Source of the DNA: a virus
Lineage: Duplodnaviria > Heunggongvirae > Uroviricota > Caudoviricetes
Strand: one strand, 5' to 3'
IMG/VR virus record: IMGVR_UViG_2925903241_000002
Length of the DNA: 16,970 bases
The notes beneath the pieces are model-generated. The model had not been told where the DNA came from and did no database searches. It worked only from the letters and a program-made list of their open reading frames with translations. Shown piece by piece: positions 2,540 to 16,970 of the stretch; the first letter of the stretch is position 1, and each line of letters begins with the position of its first letter. A program made the translations under genes and the position numbers.

Positions 2540-2544
2540 TAAAA

Positions 2545-2572
2545 AAGCCCGACATAATGAATTTGTGGGCTT
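2545..2572. terminator. hairpin between the convergent alpA and RHH genes; probably a terminator for the minus-strand gene, possibly bidirectional
   Basis: Stem AAGCCCGACA / TGTGGGCTT with one mismatch. An A-run precedes it on the plus strand, which is a U-run after the stem on the minus strand. Confidence 0.4.
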
Positions 2573-2635
2573 AAAAATATTGTCGCTTACTGAAATTAAC
2601 ATGGAAACAGAGAGAACGTCTGTTGGCTTCTCTAT

Positions 2636-2821
2636 TCAACTACCTTGCTCTGGCTTATTTTTCCTGCGCTGTCGGCGTTTAATCTCGCCTTTTACAGCCG
2701 TAACAATGAATTGCGCTTTCGTTTCTCCATCTTCAAGGTTGCTTTCTAATTCTGCAACTACATCATGTGGGAAACGAGCATTAAGTTGCTGCGACTTGTT
2801 GTTAGTTGAACTCGTTGCCAT
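2636..2821 (-). CDS. small ribbon-helix-helix-like (Arc/CopG-type) DNA-binding protein, putative regulator
   Basis: 61-aa ORF with a strong SD (GAGGAG on the minus strand, about 8 nt before the ATG at 2821). The layout QLNARFPHDVV (beta strand), AELESNL (helix), KAQFIVTAVKGEIKRRQRR (basic helix) fits the RHH fold. Fold assignment is inference. Confidence 0.55.
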   Translation of the reverse strand: MATSSTNNKSQQLNARFPHDVVAELESNLEDGETKAQFIVTAVKGEIKRRQRRKNKPEQGS

Positions 2822-2840
2822 TACTGGATCTCCTCGCGTT

Positions 2841-2933
2841 AGGTGCGATTCAGTATATGCAAAAAAAATGATAATAAAAAGCTTGAAGTGCGATTCACTT
2901 AAGGGTAGCTTTAAAATTAAAGGTGCGATTCAC
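2841..2933. repeat. three direct repeats of (A/G)GTGCGATTCA(C/G) followed by an A-rich tract; candidate operator or origin-like site
   Basis: Copies at 2841-2853, 2886-2898 and 2921-2933, with a degenerate fourth (GTGCGAAGCC) at 2941-2950. They lie just upstream of the RHH gene start, between the divergent RHH gene and the primase operon. Confidence 0.5.
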
Positions 2934-3008
2934 CTTGTGAGTGCGAAGCCCGACAGTGCAGCAACACTAACCGGGCTTCTGACCAATCCGCTAAATGAGG
3001 TAACGAAG

Positions 3009-3185
3009 ATGGCTAAACAGAAGTGTACCTGGTTATTTGCGGCGATCAACCGCAGTCAACGCAATACCCGTCCTGTGATGTTAAGGATCACCGCAGATAA
3101 CGAGCGGTCAGCGCGGCGCAGACTTGCCCCGGACTATGTACTGAGCTTTGCCGGGCGCATTCCCTGCGGAGGTGAACATGCGTAA
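3009..3185 (+). CDS. possible small hypothetical protein (59 aa), first gene of the primase operon
   Basis: ATG at 3009 with GAGG about 9 nt upstream; its stop overlaps the next gene's start. It is embedded in a longer 244-aa ORF that is probably spurious upstream, so this call is weak. Confidence 0.3.
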   Translation: MAKQKCTWLFAAINRSQRNTRPVMLRITADNERSARRRLAPDYVLSFAGRIPCGGEHA

Positions 3186-3537
3186 TTATCCGCACCCCGG
3201 CGAACGCTGGCAGCATGAACGTGGCTGGACGGTCACGATTATCCGATTAATAGAAGCCTCGCCCTCTGTGGCGCTGGTTAATCCTGAATTCAGCTGTGAA
3301 GTGCTGATACGTCATGACAGCGACAACCAGCTTTCTTCCTGCCCTCTGGCATGGTTTGAACAGCGGTATACGCGCCTGTTTGATGTACCGCTCTTGAAGC
3401 CTGCACCAGCTCCTGCTGGCGGTAGTGGTTCCGGCCCGCTGACACTGCATCCGTCTGTGCTATTTATCCGCTGGCGGGAGCGTAGCATACGGCGTTCTGC
3501 TGAGCCTGACGACGGTCACTATTCAAAGTTTCTCTGA
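3178..3537 (+). CDS. hypothetical protein
   Basis: ATG at 3178 with GGAGG 6-9 nt upstream; GC-rich like the primase operon. The N-terminal 70 aa look globular and the C-terminus is low complexity, so the true stop may be misjudged. Confidence 0.55.
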   Translation: MRNYPHPGERWQHERGWTVTIIRLIEASPSVALVNPEFSCEVLIRHDSDNQLSSCPLAWFEQRYTRLFDVPLLKPAPAPAGGSGSGPLTLHPSVLFIRWRERSIRRSAEPDDGHYSKFL

Positions 3538-3853: not shown

Positions 3854-4233
3854 ACCAGCCGCAGGTTTCCATTTTCCCGGCAGAAATGACCACCGCGCTT
3901 TACCGGCGGGCTATTGCTTCAGCATGGCGGCAGAAAATGCTGAACGAAACTGGCAGTGATCAGTATGGTCCGCACAGCCTGACGGTGGAGCGTATTGAAA
4001 TGGCCATTGCGCTGCATATCGAGTGCGTACTGATTAACGAGTACGGCGAAGCACAGGGCGCCGCTGCCGCGCTGGCACTGCTGACTGACATGCTGGAGCC
4101 GTCACTGCTGACCGCGCCGCCGGTACTGACCGCGCGCGGCTGTGAAGTGATGGCGGAGATGTACCGCACGCTTCCGGCGGCCTTTGATGACTTCTGCAGT
4201 ACCGGTGTGACGTTGTATCAGGGGGAAGTATGA
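3850..4233 (+). CDS. hypothetical protein
   Basis: GAAGGAGG upstream; 127 aa; translationally coupled to both neighbours through ATGA overlaps at 3850 and 4230. Confidence 0.6.
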   Translation: MNQPQVSIFPAEMTTALYRRAIASAWRQKMLNETGSDQYGPHSLTVERIEMAIALHIECVLINEYGEAQGAAAALALLTDMLEPSLLTAPPVLTARGCEVMAEMYRTLPAAFDDFCSTGVTLYQGEV

Positions 4234-6902
4234 CAATACAGACGGTTACGCAGATTTCAGCCGCCGCACGGGGGAAATGGCCCGTTATTCTCCAGATGCT
4301 GCGTATTGATGTACCTGAAAACGGCAGGCACGGTCCCTGCCCGAAATGTGGGGGCAAGGATCGTTTTCGCCTTGATGACCTTGACGGGCGCGGGACGTGG
4401 ATCTGCAGCCAGTGTGGCAATGGTGACGGTCTGGATCTGGTTAAGCTCGTAACCGGTTACAGCGTCAGAAAGGCTGCGCAGGAGGTGGCGCAGGTGCTTA
4501 ATGTGCCGGATGTGCAGGAACTGCCTGTTAAGCCTGCCAGAAAAAAAGCCCCTAAACGCGACATGGGTCTTACCGTGGCGGCGCTGATGAAAGAGAGCCA
4601 CACGGGAGAAAGCGCCTATCTGACAGGAAAAGGGTTCGCCGGATACCCGGCCTCTCTGACCGGAAGCGTGCAGCATATCAGCGGTAAGGATTTTCCTGCC
4701 GGTTCCCTGCTGTTACCACTCACGACCAACACCGGAGCCGTGACTGGTGCACAGCTTATCGCCCCGACGGGTGAAAAAAGCATACTGCCCGGCAGCACGA
4801 TGAAAGGCGCGTTTGTGTCGCTCAGCCCGTTACCGTCTGAACCACCGGTACAGGTGGTGATTACCGAAGGTTACGCTACGGCGCTGACGGTAAGTCAGCT
4901 CACTGCCGGATGCGTAGTGGCTGCCATATCTGCGGGCAACCTGCCCAATGTGGCGCAGTCGCTGCGGGCACGCTGGCCTGAGGTAAAAATTATCATCGCC
5001 GGTGATAACGATTTTCAGGACGGGGGTGAGAATCCCGGCAGAGCCTTTGCTGAACGGGCGGCAAAAGCTGTTGGCGGCTGGATGACGCTGCCACCGGGAG
5101 AGATTAAGGCCGACTGGAATGACTTCCATCGGGAGCACGGTATTACCCGCGCCCGTGAAGCCTTTCGTAACGGTCTGGTGCTGTGCGGGGAGGGCCGCAC
5201 GCAACTGCCGCACGGGTTCCGTCTTACCCAGGAATATCTCTGGTATGAAAAGCAGGTACAGCGCAACGGTGAGACGGAGATCCAGAACGTCAAAATATGC
5301 AGCCCGCTGCGCGTGACGGCAATCACCTGCGATGCCGATGGCGGTAACTTCGGACGACTGCTGGAATGGGAAGATACGTGGGGTGAGTGTCGCCGCTGGG
5401 CGATGCCGATGGAAATGCTGAGCGGCAGTGGTGAGGAACTGCGCCGGGTATTGCTGGTTAACGGGCTGTCTTATATCAGCACCACCGGTGAGGCACGCGC
5501 ACGCCTGATGGAATATATCTCACTGTGTAAACCGGAACGCCGCGTGACCTGCGTCAGTCGTACTGGCTGGCATGGTCAGGTTTACGTCCTGCAGGATGAG
5601 GTCAGCGGTGAAGGTGCAGAGGGTGTCATTCTCCAGACCACTTCCGTGCAGGGGCGTGATTTCCGCGTGTCGGGCACAACAGAGGAATGGCGGGAGCATG
5701 TATCCCGCTACTGTACCGGCAACTCCCGCGTGGCATTTGCTGTCAGCCTGGCCTTTGCTGCACCACTGTTACGGCTGGTTGGTATGGACGGCGGCGGCTA
5801 CCACCTCAAAGGGGAATCGACAGACGGTAAGACCACCACCATGAAAGCGGCAACCTCCGTCTGCGGCGGGCCTGACTACTGGCAGACATGGCGGGCCACC
5901 GGCAACGCGCTGGAGGGATGCGCCAGCCGCCGCAACGATGCCGCCATGATGCTTGATGAGATCCGGGAAGTTGACGGACGCGAGGCAGGCAATATCGCCT
6001 ACATGCTGGCAAACGGTCAGGGCAAGGGCCGTGCCGGTACGGACGGTGAGCTGCGTACCCGTAAGCATTGGCGCCTGTTGTTCTTTTCAACTGGCGAGTT
6101 GTCTCTGACCGAACATGCGGCAAAGGCCGGTGAGCGTACTTTTGCCGGGATGGAAGTCAGGATGATCCAGATCCCCAGCGATTCCGGGAAGTTTGGCGTT
6201 TTTGAGGAGCTGCACGGCTTCGACAGCGGCAAGGCTCTGGCAGAGCATCTTGAATGGGCCACGTCCTGCTACTACGGTTCGCCGTTCCGGGAGTGGCTGA
6301 AAGCACTGACCGCTGATCTTAACGGACTAACGGCACAGGCAAAATCGCTGATGAAGGAATATGCTGCCGCCCTGACTCCGAAAGATGCAGGCAATCAGGT
6401 GGGCCGGGCTGTGAACCGCTTTGCTCTGGTGGCGATGGCAGGTGAACTGGCAACCCGTCTGGGTATCACCGGCTGGCCTGAGGGTGAAGCACTGCGGGCA
6501 ACCCGCGTCTGCCTGAACGCATGGCTGAAAGATCGCGGGCACACCGCCAATCAGGAAGATATCGCCGCACTGGAGCAGGTTCGCAGTTTCTTTACCGCGA
6601 ATCAGTACAGCCGCTTTGCAGACTGGTATGACGAGCGCAACCGCCCCGGCAATATGGTGGGCTGGCGCAGGGTGGAGAAAGGCAGTACCGCGCAGGGCAC
6701 GGAAGCTGTCACTACGTTCTATGTCATGCCGTCCGGCTGGAAAGAAATCTGCAGGGGATTTGACCCGCGCAAGGTGGCGCGTCTGTGCGCAGATCGTGGA
6801 TACCTGCTGCCCTCCACTGATGGCAAACTCCAGACAACCATTCGCCCGCCAGAGATGAATCCCCGCAGGCTCTATGTCTTCAACAGCGAGGTGCCGGGTT
6901 AA
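4230..6902 (+). CDS. P4 alpha-like primase-helicase (zinc-binding domain, Toprim, P-loop NTPase)
   Basis: 890 aa. N-terminal CPKCGG...CSQCGNGDG zinc ribbon; Toprim-like EGYATALT ... IIAGDNDF; Walker A GESTDGKTT; GGGGAAG RBS. Confidence 0.9.
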   Translation: MTIQTVTQISAAARGKWPVILQMLRIDVPENGRHGPCPKCGGKDRFRLDDLDGRGTWICSQCGNGDGLDLVKLVTGYSVRKAAQEVAQVLNVPDVQELPVKPARKKAPKRDMGLTVAALMKESHTGESAYLTGKGFAGYPASLTGSVQHISGKDFPAGSLLLPLTTNTGAVTGAQLIAPTGEKSILPGSTMKGAFVSLSPLPSEPPVQVVITEGYATALTVSQLTAGCVVAAISAGNLPNVAQSLRARWPEVKIIIAGDNDFQDGGENPGRAFAERAAKAVGGWMTLPPGEIKADWNDFHREHGITRAREAFRNGLVLCGEGRTQLPHGFRLTQEYLWYEKQVQRNGETEIQNVKICSPLRVTAITCDADGGNFGRLLEWEDTWGECRRWAMPMEMLSGSGEELRRVLLVNGLSYISTTGEARARLMEYISLCKPERRVTCVSRTGWHGQVYVLQDEVSGEGAEGVILQTTSVQGRDFRVSGTTEEWREHVSRYCTGNSRVAFAVSLAFAAPLLRLVGMDGGGYHLKGESTDGKTTTMKAATSVCGGPDYWQTWRATGNALEGCASRRNDAAMMLDEIREVDGREAGNIAYMLANGQGKGRAGTDGELRTRKHWRLLFFSTGELSLTEHAAKAGERTFAGMEVRMIQIPSDSGKFGVFEELHGFDSGKALAEHLEWATSCYYGSPFREWLKALTADLNGLTAQAKSLMKEYAAALTPKDAGNQVGRAVNRFALVAMAGELATRLGITGWPEGEALRATRVCLNAWLKDRGHTANQEDIAALEQVRSFFTANQYSRFADWYDERNRPGNMVGWRRVEKGSTAQGTEAVTTFYVMPSGWKEICRGFDPRKVARLCADRGYLLPSTDGKLQTTIRPPEMNPRRLYVFNSEVPG

Positions 6903-8599: not shown

Positions 8600-8872
8600 A
8601 TGGCACTTAAATGTCCGGAATGCGGTACAGTTGCACACGCCAGAACAGCAGCCTATGAAGCTCCGTCAGTTAAACGCTCGTGGTATCAGTGCCAGAATCT
8701 GGAATGTTCCTGCACATTTACGGCACTGGAGAGTGTGGATAAGATAATCATGAAACCCCGGCGCAATGAACAGCTATCAGACAAAGCACAATCCCCGGAA
8801 AAACAACAGAAAACGCTCAATCGCTATGGCTCCGCGTCAAAACTGTCAAGCCGTCAGCAGATTCCTGTCTGA
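8600..8872 (+). CDS. Ogr/Delta-family zinc-finger late transcription activator
   Basis: C-x2-C-x22-C-x4-C (CPECG ... CQNLECSC) at the N-terminus; GGAG 8 nt before the ATG at 8600. The in-frame GTG at 8591 is less likely. Confidence 0.85.
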   Translation: MALKCPECGTVAHARTAAYEAPSVKRSWYQCQNLECSCTFTALESVDKIIMKPRRNEQLSDKAQSPEKQQKTLNRYGSASKLSSRQQIPV

Positions 8873-9499: not shown

Positions 9500-10486
9500 G
9501 TGAGTGATTCTGCATATATGAATGCATTACAAGAGCAGTTTGGAGATTTGAAATATTCAAATTTCACTGTTCAGTTCATGCCTCCTATTATTTTTGTTTG
9601 TGGTGGGCCGATAAATTCCACTCCAATGAGTGTACGAGACCACATATTTACTTATGTAGCAGGCCACAAACCTGAATTGTCAGATTCTCTTATTTTAGCT
9701 GAGAACTTCCATGACTACTTCAGAGAGGGGGCATATTCAGATCTAATGAGCTTTGAAGATGATATTGCAAATATTTCAACATTAGTTGTTATCTGTTTAG
9801 AAAGTGCAGGTTCGTTAGTTGAGCTTGGATTATTTGTTAATAGGAAGTCTCTAGCTCAAAAATTGCATGTAGTCGCACCATTTGAGGAGATTGAGGGAAA
9901 TGAACGAAAAAATATTCCTGCTAGATCTTCTTTTATATATTTAGGCCCTTTGGAGTATCTTAAAAAAATAGATGAGGCCTCAGTATCAGTTTATCCATGG
10001 CCAAAATCGGATCGTATGAAATATGATGAGGTTGAGCTTATCTACCATGATATTCATTCTAGATTAAAACGTGTAAAAAAAACGGAGCGATATAACCCTG
10101 AAAATACTGGGCACCTAGCTATATTGATTTACGAAATAATCCTTTTATCAGAACCAATCAAGAAAAGCGAAATAGAGTGGGCACTATACTGTATGGATAT
10201 AGATGTGCCACAAAAAATAATAACTCGTTTACTTTATTTGCTTGAAAAGATGAAATTAACCTCATCATTATCTTACAGTGGTACAGACTACTTCTATTCC
10301 CGAGGGCATAGAGAGAGTAAACTTAAATTTGGTATCAGTGCTAGTGGTAAAATAAAGGATTCTATGAATATTAAGGTTGCAATCCGACAATCTTACTTAA
10401 GTATGGATGCTAAAGATATGGACGAGACTGCAAAAAAAAGGAAAAATGCTCTAAATCAAATCAATATCGTGCGTGGAGGGGCTTAG
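9500..10486 (+). CDS. retron effector candidate: nucleoside 2-deoxyribosyltransferase-like N-terminal domain with a possible winged-helix C-terminal domain
   Basis: 328 aa, AT-rich. PPIIFVCGGP and VVICLESAGSLVELGLF resemble the NDT/Rossmann-like fold with a conserved Glu. The start is uncertain: GTG at 9500 or ATG at 9518, neither with a strong SD. The stop lies 1 nt before the RT start. Confidence 0.65.
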   Translation: MSDSAYMNALQEQFGDLKYSNFTVQFMPPIIFVCGGPINSTPMSVRDHIFTYVAGHKPELSDSLILAENFHDYFREGAYSDLMSFEDDIANISTLVVICLESAGSLVELGLFVNRKSLAQKLHVVAPFEEIEGNERKNIPARSSFIYLGPLEYLKKIDEASVSVYPWPKSDRMKYDEVELIYHDIHSRLKRVKKTERYNPENTGHLAILIYEIILLSEPIKKSEIEWALYCMDIDVPQKIITRLLYLLEKMKLTSSLSYSGTDYFYSRGHRESKLKFGISASGKIKDSMNIKVAIRQSYLSMDAKDMDETAKKRKNALNQINIVRGGA

Positions 10487-10487
10487 A

Positions 10488-11420
10488 ATGGAGTTGCTAA
10501 GTTATATTTCAAAAGGTCTTTTTCTTAGCGAAGAAGAGGCTAAAAGGTATATTGTTACTATTCCACGCAGATATAAAATTTATCCTATCGCCAAAAGAAA
10601 TGGTAATGGATATAGATTAATTGCACAACCAGCTAGGCAAGTTAAAGCCTTACAGAAGGTAGTAATCAATCATATGTTGGCTAATTTGAAAGTTCATGAA
10701 AATGCTTTCGCTTATGAAGCCGATAAAAGTATTAGATCTAATGCGTTAATGCATTGTAATAATGATTATTTGCTTAAAATGGATTTTAAAAACTTTTTTA
10801 TGAGTATCAAACCCCATAATCTTTTATCTGTCTTAAAAGATTATGGCGTTGAACTAACTGATACTGATATCTTTGTTCTTAAAAATCTTTTCTTCTGGAA
10901 GTTAAGAAGAAATAGCCCGTTACGCCTAAGTGTTGGAGCACCTTCTTCTCCCATTATTTCAAATACAGTAATGTATTTCTTCGATGAGGAAATATCGAAA
11001 AGATGCAAGGATTTGGGTATTACCTACTCAAGGTATGCTGATGATCTTACGTTTAGCACCAAAGTCAAAGGAGCTTTATTTGATGTTCCTAAGTTAGTAA
11101 GGGAAGTTCTTAACGTAGTAAATCTTAGGAATATTAAAATAAACCATGAGAAAACAGTTTTTACCTCAAGGAAGTTTAATAGACATGTAACTGGTGTAAC
11201 TATTACGACTGATGGTTATTTGTCTTTAGGTCGTGATAGAAAGCGTCTTTTAAGAAGTAAAATACATTATTATGTGTGTGGGGTTTTATCTGAGAAAGAA
11301 ATTCTAACCCTTAAAGGAGAATTAGGCTATGCGAAATTTATTGAACATAAATTCTTTGCCTCCATGATTAAGAAATATGGGGATGATGTAATCAGCGAAA
11401 TTTCAAAATATGAAATTTAA
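10488..11420 (+). CDS. retron-type reverse transcriptase
   Basis: GGAGG 8 nt upstream of the ATG at 10488. RT motifs are present: IYPIAKRNGNGYRLIAQP (motifs 1-2), LKMDFKNFFMSI (3), SVGAPSSPIISN (4), YSRYADDLTFS (5, YADD). NRHVTGVTI carries the retron-characteristic VTG motif, and about 310 aa is typical retron RT size. Confidence 0.85.
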   Translation: MELLSYISKGLFLSEEEAKRYIVTIPRRYKIYPIAKRNGNGYRLIAQPARQVKALQKVVINHMLANLKVHENAFAYEADKSIRSNALMHCNNDYLLKMDFKNFFMSIKPHNLLSVLKDYGVELTDTDIFVLKNLFFWKLRRNSPLRLSVGAPSSPIISNTVMYFFDEEISKRCKDLGITYSRYADDLTFSTKVKGALFDVPKLVREVLNVVNLRNIKINHEKTVFTSRKFNRHVTGVTITTDGYLSLGRDRKRLLRSKIHYYVCGVLSEKEILTLKGELGYAKFIEHKFFASMIKKYGDDVISEISKYEI

Positions 11421-13018: not shown

Positions 13019-15761
<2,743 letters not shown>

Positions 15762-16175
15762 CGTAAGTAAAATCAGCCACCCACAGCTGGTCAGGTCGTT
15801 CTGCCACGAACTGACGGTTTACGCGGTCGCCTGCGGCAACGGCTTTCCGGCTGATGGTCGTACGGACCTTTTTACCCCGGAGAACACCGGCAAGTCCCAT
15901 AACCGCCATGAGACGTGCCACAGTGCATCTGGCCACTCTGATACCTTCCCGTAACAACTGACGCCAGACTTTACGCACACCGTATACCTTGTGATTTTCA
16001 TCGTATACGCGCTGTATCTCTTTCTTCAGCCAGTCATCGCGCTGCGCACGGGCACTGCGTTTATCCGGATGATGTCGCTGTTGCTGACAGTGGTAATACG
16101 TTGACGGGGCAATATGCAGTTCGCTGCATAGCGGTCCGACCCCGTACTGCTCACGCAGCTTATCCAGCAGTGGCA

Positions 16176-16179
<4 letters not shown>
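15762..16179 (-). pseudogene. IS3-family transposase OrfB, 5' exon (interrupted by the group II intron after ...LWVADFTY)
   Basis: The reading frame runs into intron sequence (GVPGVQ ...) at 15761; the intron begins GTGTG on the minus strand. Confidence 0.8.

Positions 16180-16970
<791 letters not shown>

Follow-up and report, generated by a model that had tools for sequence, protein, structure and literature searches.

Repeats that change with a YlcI/YnfO-family protein, and a predicted SymR-like antisense RNA, in the control region of an Escherichia coli P4-like satellite

The subject of this study is the 187-bp spacer between two divergent transcription units in a 16,970-bp stretch of DNA (IMG/VR virus record IMGVR_UViG_2925903241_000002, Caudoviricetes), which at its full length is called the window below. 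The window is an Escherichia coli P4-like satellite at tRNA-Leu. On one side of the spacer lies a minus-strand gene (2636-2821) for a 61-aa protein that scores 65.7 bits, against a cut-off of 30, for the YlcI/YnfO family (NCBIfam NF041551). On the other side a plus-strand early operon starts at 3009; its first gene encodes a 58-aa Icd-like protein (NCBIfam NF033153, 82.9 bits against a cut-off of 25) and its last gene, at 4230-6902, a TOPRIM/DUF927 primase. The spacer itself carries three copies of a short repeat and a conserved hairpin, and the nature of these two features is what concerns us here.

The sequence-only reading of this DNA had described the two flanking units, three direct repeats and an inverted repeat, and on all of these it was accurate. 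The repeat GTGCGATTCA occurs exactly three times in the window, always on the plus strand (2843-2852, 2888-2897 and 2923-2932), at spacings of 45 and 35 bp and within a common unit of 12 nt, A[G/A]GTGCGATTCA. The second and third copies form palindromes of GTG-N5-CAC build, AAGTG-CGATT-CACTT (2886-2900) and AAGGTG-CGATT-CACCTT (2920-2936). The inverted repeat consists of exactly matching arms, GAAGCCCG (2945-2952) and CGGGCTTC (2972-2979), with 19 nt between them. Of 20,000 shuffles of the 187-bp spacer, 4 contained some 10-mer in three or more copies, all of these cases being poly-A overlaps or low-complexity sequence; shuffling the whole window, with one mismatch allowed and matches accepted anywhere, produced three matches in 25 of 200 shuffles, a result that is uninformative alone. 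The features of the repressor-facing part of the region are as follows (operators are given without a strand).

2636-2821, minus strand: YlcI/YnfO-family gene (NF041551), 61 aa, predicted ribbon-helix-helix (RHH) repressor
2830-2835, minus strand: Shine-Dalgarno (SD) sequence of the repressor gene, GAGGAG, read from the sequence; a CTCC-type block occupies the same place in related loci
2841-2852: candidate operator O1, AGGTGCGATTCA; adjoins the predicted -10 and lies over the point where transcription from the repressor promoter is predicted to start; position conserved, sequence varying with the protein
2852-2857, minus strand: predicted -10 of the repressor promoter, TATACT, with a conserved T-run before it; GTATAC or GTATAT followed by A8 stands beside O1 in most YlcI-type loci
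2883-2888, plus strand: predicted -35 of the early (icd-to-primase) promoter, TTGAAG, from a comparative line-up
2886-2900: candidate operator O2, palindrome AAGTGCGATTCACTT; overlaps the end of the early -35 and runs into the promoter spacer
2906-2911, plus strand: predicted -10 of the early promoter, TAGCTT, with a start at about 2918-2919; TAGnTT at 17-nt spacing is kept in the window's subgroup
2920-2936: candidate operator O3, palindrome AAGGTGCGATTCACCTT, which would span roughly +2 to +18 of the early transcript and, read on the minus strand, doubles as a hairpin with UAAUUUUAAA behind it

A sensitive BLAST search of the spacer yielded 12 diverged loci, and the collection was then enlarged to 241 loci with IMG/VR and metagenome contigs. 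The spacer is a mosaic, its left part, with the repeats, and its right part, with the hairpin and leader, matching different sets of E. coli elements. The order of YlcI-family gene (minus strand), spacer and Icd-like gene (plus strand) is kept in 12 of 12 diverged loci, across quite different replication genes; their repeats retain their positions and are swapped wholesale in sequence, all copies together, the replacements being GGTGTATTTCA, GTGGGCCACA, ATGTATATCAC (in four copies) and TGGTACGTACCA. Among 121 unique combinations of protein and spacer, drawn from loci of which 155 of 241 contain a YlcI-like divergent open reading frame (ORF), the residues aligned to residues 12-17 of the window's protein predict which repeat dominates. 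The beta-strand QQLNARF is found with three copies of GGTGCGATT, QMTTIRV with four of TGTATATCA and QT[VI]AARV with three of GTGTTCAAC; TDQYQIRL goes with TGTAATTACA and STKKNIRF with TGGTACGTACCA. The family positions that co-vary with the repeat motif are 12-15 and 17, set amid invariant K9, S10, R16 and P18, an arrangement that would fit the DNA-reading strand of an RHH protein.

Two comparisons, with locus L009 and with loci L007 and L008, amount to natural swaps of the surrounding genes.

Window versus L009: identical residues 70/76 in AlpA, 57/58 in Icd and 35/61 in YlcI; repeats differ, the L009-type sites being GTGGGCCACA
Window versus L007/L008: identical residues 16-17/76 in AlpA, 17-18/66 in Icd and 49/61 in YlcI, with the same beta-strand; repeats the same

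The repeats follow ylcI and neither AlpA, Icd nor the replication module, which argues both against an origin and against AlpA sites. AlpA acts as an activator in the phage-inducible chromosomal islands (PICIs) of Gram-negative bacteria (PMC6092414) and is encoded 300 bp away, and the YlcI/YnfO family is not known to have a tested function; the repeats might on these grounds be operators of some other protein (AlpA/Vis, a regulator of the helper phage or a host factor), with the YlcI-family protein doing something else. We consider this improbable, because the AlpA proteins of the window and L009, whose repeats differ, share 92% identity, because those of the window and L007/L008, whose repeats are the same, are unrelated, and because in dozens of types the motif of the repeats goes with the beta-strand of YlcI. 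The sequence-only reading had also entertained an origin-like site, a suggestion that loses its footing in the same comparisons. The ori and crr of P4 are made of short repeats, and the repeats of the window do lie upstream of a replication operon, yet the idea that they are iterons bound by the primase or another initiator is hardly credible: the same repeats accompany unrelated replication modules (a RepA helicase in L007, TOPRIM/DUF927 in the window), an Icd-like protein identical at 57 of 58 residues is found in L009 beside different repeats, and the repeats overlap promoter elements and have no further copies in the window. Iterons would co-vary with their initiator, and these repeats track ylcI, not icd or the primase or helicase.

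The placement of the repeats is equally regular. The predicted early promoter has a recurrent geometry, with TTGACG or TTGAAG about 61 nt from the ylcI start codon and TAnnnT 17-18 nt after that hexamer, and the pattern reaches a score of at least 8 out of 12 in 28 of 59 distinct family types. Across loci, one repeat is placed right behind the -35, another lies on or beyond the -10, and the first repeat abuts the conserved GTATAC(T). Such fixed places in two back-to-back promoters support operators and speak against an origin. In L003, L004, L178 and other loci the third operator is inverted relative to the first two, while all three are direct in the window, so the orientation of the asymmetric 5-bp core is not conserved among specificity types. 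Sequence comparison finds the attributes expected of RHH-type operators, namely repeated or palindromic sites over promoters with a specificity set by the beta-strand. The proposal that the RHH protein recognizes the repeats gains support from their concerted change with the beta-strand and from their overlap with conserved promoter elements, and the three repeats are very probably the binding sites of the neighbouring small repressor.

The fold of the 61-aa protein is less firmly assigned. An AlphaFold2 model of the monomer consists of coil at residues 1-18 and helices at 19-30 and 35-55, with a predicted local distance difference test score of 72. An hhalign comparison with a hand-entered Arc sequence places Q12-N14-R16 opposite the DNA-contacting Q9-N11-R13 of Arc, with an E-value of 6.5e-4 and a probability of 28%. 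One source names the protein as a member of the CopG family; Pfam returned no match for an RHH fold in it, and a PDB sequence search with a YlcI profile gave only an irrelevant match at E = 1.6. An RHH fold is likely but not established.

The operon-facing part of the region, together with the first codons of the icd-like gene, holds the second group of features.

2910-3014, minus strand: predicted cis-antisense small RNA of about 75-105 nt, 5' end at A3014 (AGCCAU); based on fold, covariance model (CM) and similarity to SymR
2945-2979, minus strand: hairpin 2, a long terminator-type stem with the apex GUG-UUGCUG-CAC, the same stem as the inverted repeat above; based on stability, covariation, G·U pairs and CM
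2978-2985, minus strand: single-stranded linker UGGUCAGA, UGGUYAGA in the family and UGAUUAGC in SymR; invariant in the BLAST-derived E. coli set
2987-3007, minus strand: hairpin 1, with the anti-SD sequence CCUC (3000-2997) in its loop; compensatory changes at 5 of 5 pairs in 140 sequences
2997-3000, plus strand: SD sequence of the icd-like gene, GAGG, wholly covered by the predicted antisense RNA; a GAGG or GGAG block before the ATG is conserved in the family
3009-3185, plus strand: Icd-like gene (NF033153), 58 aa, homologue of the C-terminal part of P4 Kil/Eta, first of the early operon
3022-3027, minus strand: predicted -10 of the antisense promoter, TACACT, 7 nt upstream of A3014 and within icd codons 5-7; called from TAnnnT at a fixed offset
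3044-3049, minus strand: possible -35 of the antisense promoter, TTGATC, with a 16-nt spacer; a weak call read from the sequence

In an alignment of 140 non-redundant minus-strand sequences RNAalifold finds two hairpins, and a slightly extended form of this structure was used for counting pairs. Most of the family was gathered with the pattern ACAC-N5-GGGC-N-TCTRACC, which fixes 15 bases of hairpin and linker; those columns are invariant by construction, so that the evidence is supplied by the remaining columns and by the E. coli set that BLAST had yielded independently of the pattern. A scan of genome contigs with too loose a pattern gave chance matches at about 105 of 120 loci, and these were reused as decoys for the CM. 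In every one of the 130 unique variants the hairpin is more stable on the minus strand than on the plus strand, the mean difference being 6.2 kcal/mol. Pairing holds in 94.8% of cells on the minus strand, as against 81.3% on the plus strand and 83.3% in shuffles (0/500 reached 94.8%), and falls to 34-52% in controls with sliding partners. Read on the minus strand, the alignment holds 393 G·U cells and 16 A·C cells, the A·C mismatches of the plus strand being the G·U pairs of the minus strand, and cells with double changes number 303, compared with 85 in shuffles (0/500 reached it). The family CM scores 74.1 bits on the minus strand of the window and 11.9 bits on the plus strand; run against 724 kb of decoy loci carrying the same search pattern, it produced no false hits. 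Comparative evidence of this kind indicates that the conserved hairpin functions on the minus strand.

This bears directly on the regulator envisaged by the sequence-only reading, a structured leader giving rise to an RNA like the CI RNA of P4. The plus-strand leader (about 2919-3008) could in that case be a structured or processed regulatory RNA which, like P4 CI, P1 c4 and N15 CA, acts on its own transcript; it occupies the position of the P4 CI region, between alpA/vis and a kil/eta homologue, it folds with -29.5 kcal/mol (z = -2.0), and its hairpin is followed by UCUGACCA, which we take to resemble the 3' CCA tail of RNase P substrates. Such an RNA is very improbable all the same. The Rfam families C4 (RF01695), isrK (RF01394) and c4-a1b1 (RF03163) have no match at the gathering score in the whole window and none at E ≤ 10 in 2540-3300, whereas P4, as a positive control, gives 74.9 bits for C4 (8420-8507) and 60.8 bits for isrK (8615-8692), and the scores for these families in P4 and two related loci range over 47-75 bits. 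The plus-strand hairpin, with its A·C mismatches, is moreover the less stable one in every variant, the wobble pairs and the CM score favour the other strand, and the U-tail and the constrained -10 described below are likewise features of the minus strand. An RNA regulator is probably encoded at this place, as had been thought possible, although it would be a SymR-like cis-antisense RNA from the opposite strand and not a processed sense-strand leader. In two loci (L005:1626-1830 and L006:2236-2421) a C4 RNA, with c4-a1b1 or isrK, lies downstream of the first icd-like gene; C4-type RNAs beside the module show that it is distinct from the P4 CI system and able to coexist with it in tandem.

The promoter proposed for the antisense RNA lies inside an icd-like ORF, and a protein constraint on its -10 hexamer had to be excluded. 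On the minus strand, 83 of 91 members have TAnnnT at a distance of exactly 7 nt upstream of the first base of AGCCAU (the complement of ATGGCT); it stands at the equivalent place in 39 of the 49 members with other N-termini (122/140 overall) and is rare at all other offsets. The wobble base opposite the -11A is T in 85/91 and 40/49 members and never C, although the codon stands for ten or more different amino acids; in the same sequences, NNY codons taken as controls have T:C ratios of 181:172 and 107:149. A wobble base that is never C across so many amino acids points to selection at the nucleotide level, as expected of a promoter.

Read from its predicted 5' end, the antisense RNA of the window would comprise AGCCAU, hairpin 1 (3007-2987), UGGUCAGA, hairpin 2 (2979-2945), GCACUCAC, the O3 hairpin as hairpin 3 (2936-2920) and UAAUUUUAAA. 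Its minimum free energy (MFE) is -37.4 kcal/mol (z = -4.2), and none of 200 shuffles is as stable. At least four U in the 9 nt after hairpin 2 are found in 120 of 140 members, which gives these the pattern of an intrinsic terminator, a GC-rich stem with a U-run; the window has no U-run directly after hairpin 2, and the 3' end of the RNA is therefore uncertain there. The O3 hairpin with its U-run (2936-2920, minus strand) is the sole terminator-like site flagged by a scan, and this arrangement recurs in other members that have no U-tail after hairpin 2, so that the predicted RNA may end either at about 2940, after hairpin 2, or at about 2910, after the O3 hairpin and its U-run.

The length and GC content of hairpin 2 and the U-run behind it in 120 of 140 members might suggest that it is a mere intrinsic terminator or insulator, shielding the repressor gene and the promoters from stray antisense transcription, with no RNA that regulates icd. 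That explanation is unlikely: a terminator would need neither a -10 at a fixed distance with a synonymous site under selection, nor a second covarying hairpin with an anti-SD in its loop, nor an invariant linker, nor an architecture that matches SymR from the first nucleotide. We infer instead that the conserved hairpin is part of an unannotated minus-strand antisense RNA over the ribosome site of the Kil/Icd-like gene.

Several other candidate elements were tried and rejected. Pairing in trans between the antisense RNA and the repressor mRNA was suggested by an 8-nt complement between the apical loop (2958-2965) and ylcI codons 10-13 (2785-2792), the codons of the DNA-reading strand; it does not hold for the family, as match length across 121 loci is no better than in mismatched pairs of loci, and the 8-mer, being confined to close relatives of the window, is probably due to chance. 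Other long-range inverted repeats in the region match at 70-90%, which is chance level. A T-arm or tRNA-like reading of GGTGCGATTCACC was dropped over a loop of 5 nt instead of 7, and an Ogr/delta site of the form TGT-N12-ACA, sought by eye in 2936-2957, over a spacing of 14.

The closest known counterpart of the predicted RNA is SymR, the cis-antisense RNA antitoxin of the SymR/SymE system of E. coli K-12 (Rfam RF01809; Kawano et al. 2007, PMC1891008). Both are laid out as a -10, 7 nt and AG(U/C)CAU, with a start that lies 3 nt past the start codon's complement; in the window this geometry, obtained by comparison, corresponds to the predicted start at A3014 and a -10 at 3027-3022 inside codons 5-7. 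Both continue with a first hairpin that has an anti-SD in its loop, a linker of similar sequence (UGAUUAGC in SymR, UGGUYAGA in the window's family) and a long second hairpin with a GUG-UUGNNG-CAC apex, and in both a site for a protein repressor, a candidate one in the window, lies just beyond the 3' end of the RNA. In symE that repressor is LexA. The models match reciprocally: the family CM scores 29.3 bits on K-12 SymR (E about 1e-5), from its annotated first nucleotide, and the Rfam SymR model, the sole sub-threshold hit from Rfam, scores 24.6 bits (E 0.028) on the minus strand of the window at 3014-2942, where the gathering score is 61 and K-12 SymR itself reaches 95.3 bits. The differences are nonetheless considerable. 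The target is Icd/Kil-like (NF033153) and not SymE with its AbrB fold, most members of the window's family have a classical U-tail, and the RNA sits at the head of a replication operon in a mobile satellite, paired with an RHH-type repressor instead of LexA. By the Rfam criterion the predicted antisense RNA is not SymR; it may be SymR-like in function and possibly a distant relative, and the resemblance may reflect homology or convergence. The family CM also scores 52 bits at L020:5719-5807 (DASTKI010000103.1), a Ktedonobacterales metagenome-assembled genome (MAG) with a Chloroflexota label that was absent from the training set, and 42 bits on L022, a Chromatiaceae MAG; these matches represent either contamination of the MAGs or a much wider host range.

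Other known systems share parts of the arrangement. The immI region of P22 combines the RHH repressors Mnt and Arc with the antisense RNA sar: a divergent RHH repressor has its operators over the operon promoter, and a short antisense RNA arising within the operon covers a ribosome-binding site. The layout resembles that of the window, where the predicted repressor is also divergent and probably of RHH type, the candidate operators overlap predicted promoters and the predicted antisense RNA lies over a ribosome-binding site; sar targets ant and not an icd-like gene, and P22 has two RHH proteins and single operators. P4 immunity uses the same slot, with alpA/vis on one side and, on the other, the kil/eta (icd-like) gene that heads the alpha operon; it employs an RNA to silence the early or replication operon, and has a homologous gene downstream, the Icd-like protein of the window sharing 54% identity over 46 aa, by BLASTP, with the C-terminal portion of P4's old 'cI' ORF (kil/eta region). 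Unlike the antisense RNA proposed here, P4 CI and P1 c4 are sense-strand RNAs, matured from the leader, whose target sites lie in the same transcript, and the window has no C4 or isrK match; P4 CI (C4), with seqA (isrK), is related to P1 c4-icd-ant and the N15 CA RNA and is separable from the present module, the two co-occurring in L005 and L006. In the PICIs and SaPIs of Gram-positive bacteria, finally, a divergent repressor gene (Stl/Rpr) likewise faces the satellite replication operon (PMC6092414); Stl is a larger, unrelated protein of helix-turn-helix (HTH) type, unlike the 61-aa RHH-like protein of the window.

Taken together, these observations lead us to propose, with a probability of roughly 0.65, that the 187-bp spacer is a satellite control region in which a protein repressor and a cis-antisense RNA are stacked, in the slot that holds the CI RNA in P4. 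What sequence comparison contributes to this proposal is the concerted change of repeats and protein, the promoter geometry, the strand of the RNA, its covariation, the constrained -10 and the similarity to SymR; repressor binding, transcription, the ends of the RNA, the effect on translation and the toxicity of the Icd-like protein are steps that we infer. In the first layer, the 61-aa YlcI/YnfO-family repressor would bind the three GTG-N5-CAC repeats. Since O2 and O3 lie in the spacer and at the start of the early promoter, repressor bound to them would shut off the operon from icd to the primase, and repressor at O1, over the start of its own promoter, would limit its own synthesis, resulting in autoregulation. 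In the second layer, an antisense RNA would start at A3014 from a promoter within icd codons 5-7. It would be perfectly complementary to the start codon, the SD and most of the 5' leader, offering its anti-SD in the loop of hairpin 1, and would pair with leaky early transcripts and block translation of the Kil/Icd-like protein, as SymR does on symE. The icd-like gene ends in a stop codon that overlaps the ATG of the next ORF (ATGCGTAA, 3178-3185), and later genes of the operon also abut or overlap, which suggests translational coupling along the early operon; the antisense RNA would thus probably lower downstream expression too. Candidates for the relief of repression would be a helper protein, AlpA or dilution.

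A number of points weigh against this proposal. Both layers are derived by comparing sequences. The three proposed promoters all escaped a simple promoter scan, so that the promoter calls depend on comparative conservation; the early promoter is weak in the window (7/12), and the antisense -35 is not conserved across the family. The repeats and the repressor gene are physically adjacent, and co-inheritance therefore contributes to their association. The family was collected by a fixed DNA pattern and its sequences are related, so the counts overstate the number of independent events. Unlike most family members, the window has no U-tail directly after hairpin 2, and its SymR match falls far below the Rfam gathering score (24.6 vs 61 bits).

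The module is widespread. The variant of the window alone is detectable by BLAST in 487 of 5,426 complete E. coli genomes, and the module is present too in further Enterobacterales and among contigs from IMG/VR and metagenomes; the antisense RNA is absent from Rfam at curated thresholds and is thus invisible to annotation. A literature search (YlcI/YnfO, Icd-like, P4-like with antisense, PICI with ribbon-helix-helix) found no description of the module, though its coverage was incomplete and novelty is not proven thereby. [quoted passage not shown] What would be new here is the combination of a probable RHH operator control region with a predicted SymR-type cis-antisense RNA, each being of a kind already known. 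If the proposal holds, the locus offers a concrete candidate in a satellite without CI RNA, where P4's own immunity is explained by CI RNA alone; it provides a candidate function, predicted operators and specificity residues for YlcI/YnfO, a family present also in the cryptic prophages of K-12; it adds a proposed second, RNA layer over the Kil/Icd-like gene; and it links the orphan antitoxin SymR to a much larger family. The natural pairs of operator and beta-strand would furthermore make a ready set of orthogonal mini-repressors. A bolder hypothesis, which we raise tentatively and consider doubtful, is that a large SymR-like antisense superfamily and modular, switchable tiny RHH repressors form the master 'off' switch of many Gram-negative satellites (P4-like ones without CI, and PICIs), with chromosomal SymR/SymE as a domesticated offshoot.

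The assignment of the window to a P4-like satellite agrees with its wider gene content. Many E. coli isolates carry the region in their chromosomes at 100% identity, among them Ec-050, AR216.2b and M217 and numerous carbapenem-resistant clinical isolates, and a direct search found no similarity to phages at the DNA level. In isolate Ec-050 the locus lies directly after tRNA-Leu, where the RefSeq annotation lists an integrase, a hypothetical protein, an AlpA-type HTH protein, the YlcI/YnfO-family gene on the opposite strand and the Icd-like gene, followed by two hypotheticals, DUF5375, the TOPRIM/DUF927 primase, two Psu/Sid-like proteins, Ogr/Delta and a retron St85 pair; integrase, alpA, alpha-type primase, sid/psu and delta are thus co-localized at a tRNA gene, as in P4-like satellites. 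AlpA was confirmed by Pfam and DUF5375 in Pfam/NCBIfam searches, and no epsilon/ash homologue was identified in the satellite. A tblastn search with the Icd-like protein had hits in P4 and in two Pasteurella elements and nowhere else. In the stretch that separates alpA from the end of the repressor gene, a hairpin AAGCCC...GGGCTT (2545-2572) with a T-run after it on the minus strand is probably the repressor gene's terminator, to judge from its sequence; the scan tool missed it because its loop exceeds 8 nt. The retron St85 effector and reverse transcriptase (9500-11420, plus strand) directly follow the delta gene, a position known as a defence hotspot of P4-like satellites. Beyond the satellite, among fragments of insertion sequences (IS) and integrases, lies a group II intron (13492-15105, minus strand), with an Rfam Intron_gpII match at 13492-13578 and an ltrA reverse transcriptase/maturase ORF at 13582-15105, and an ALIL pseudoknot, the programmed frameshift element of the IS3 family, is found with 120 bits at 16105-16221 (minus strand) within a degraded IS629-type transposase.

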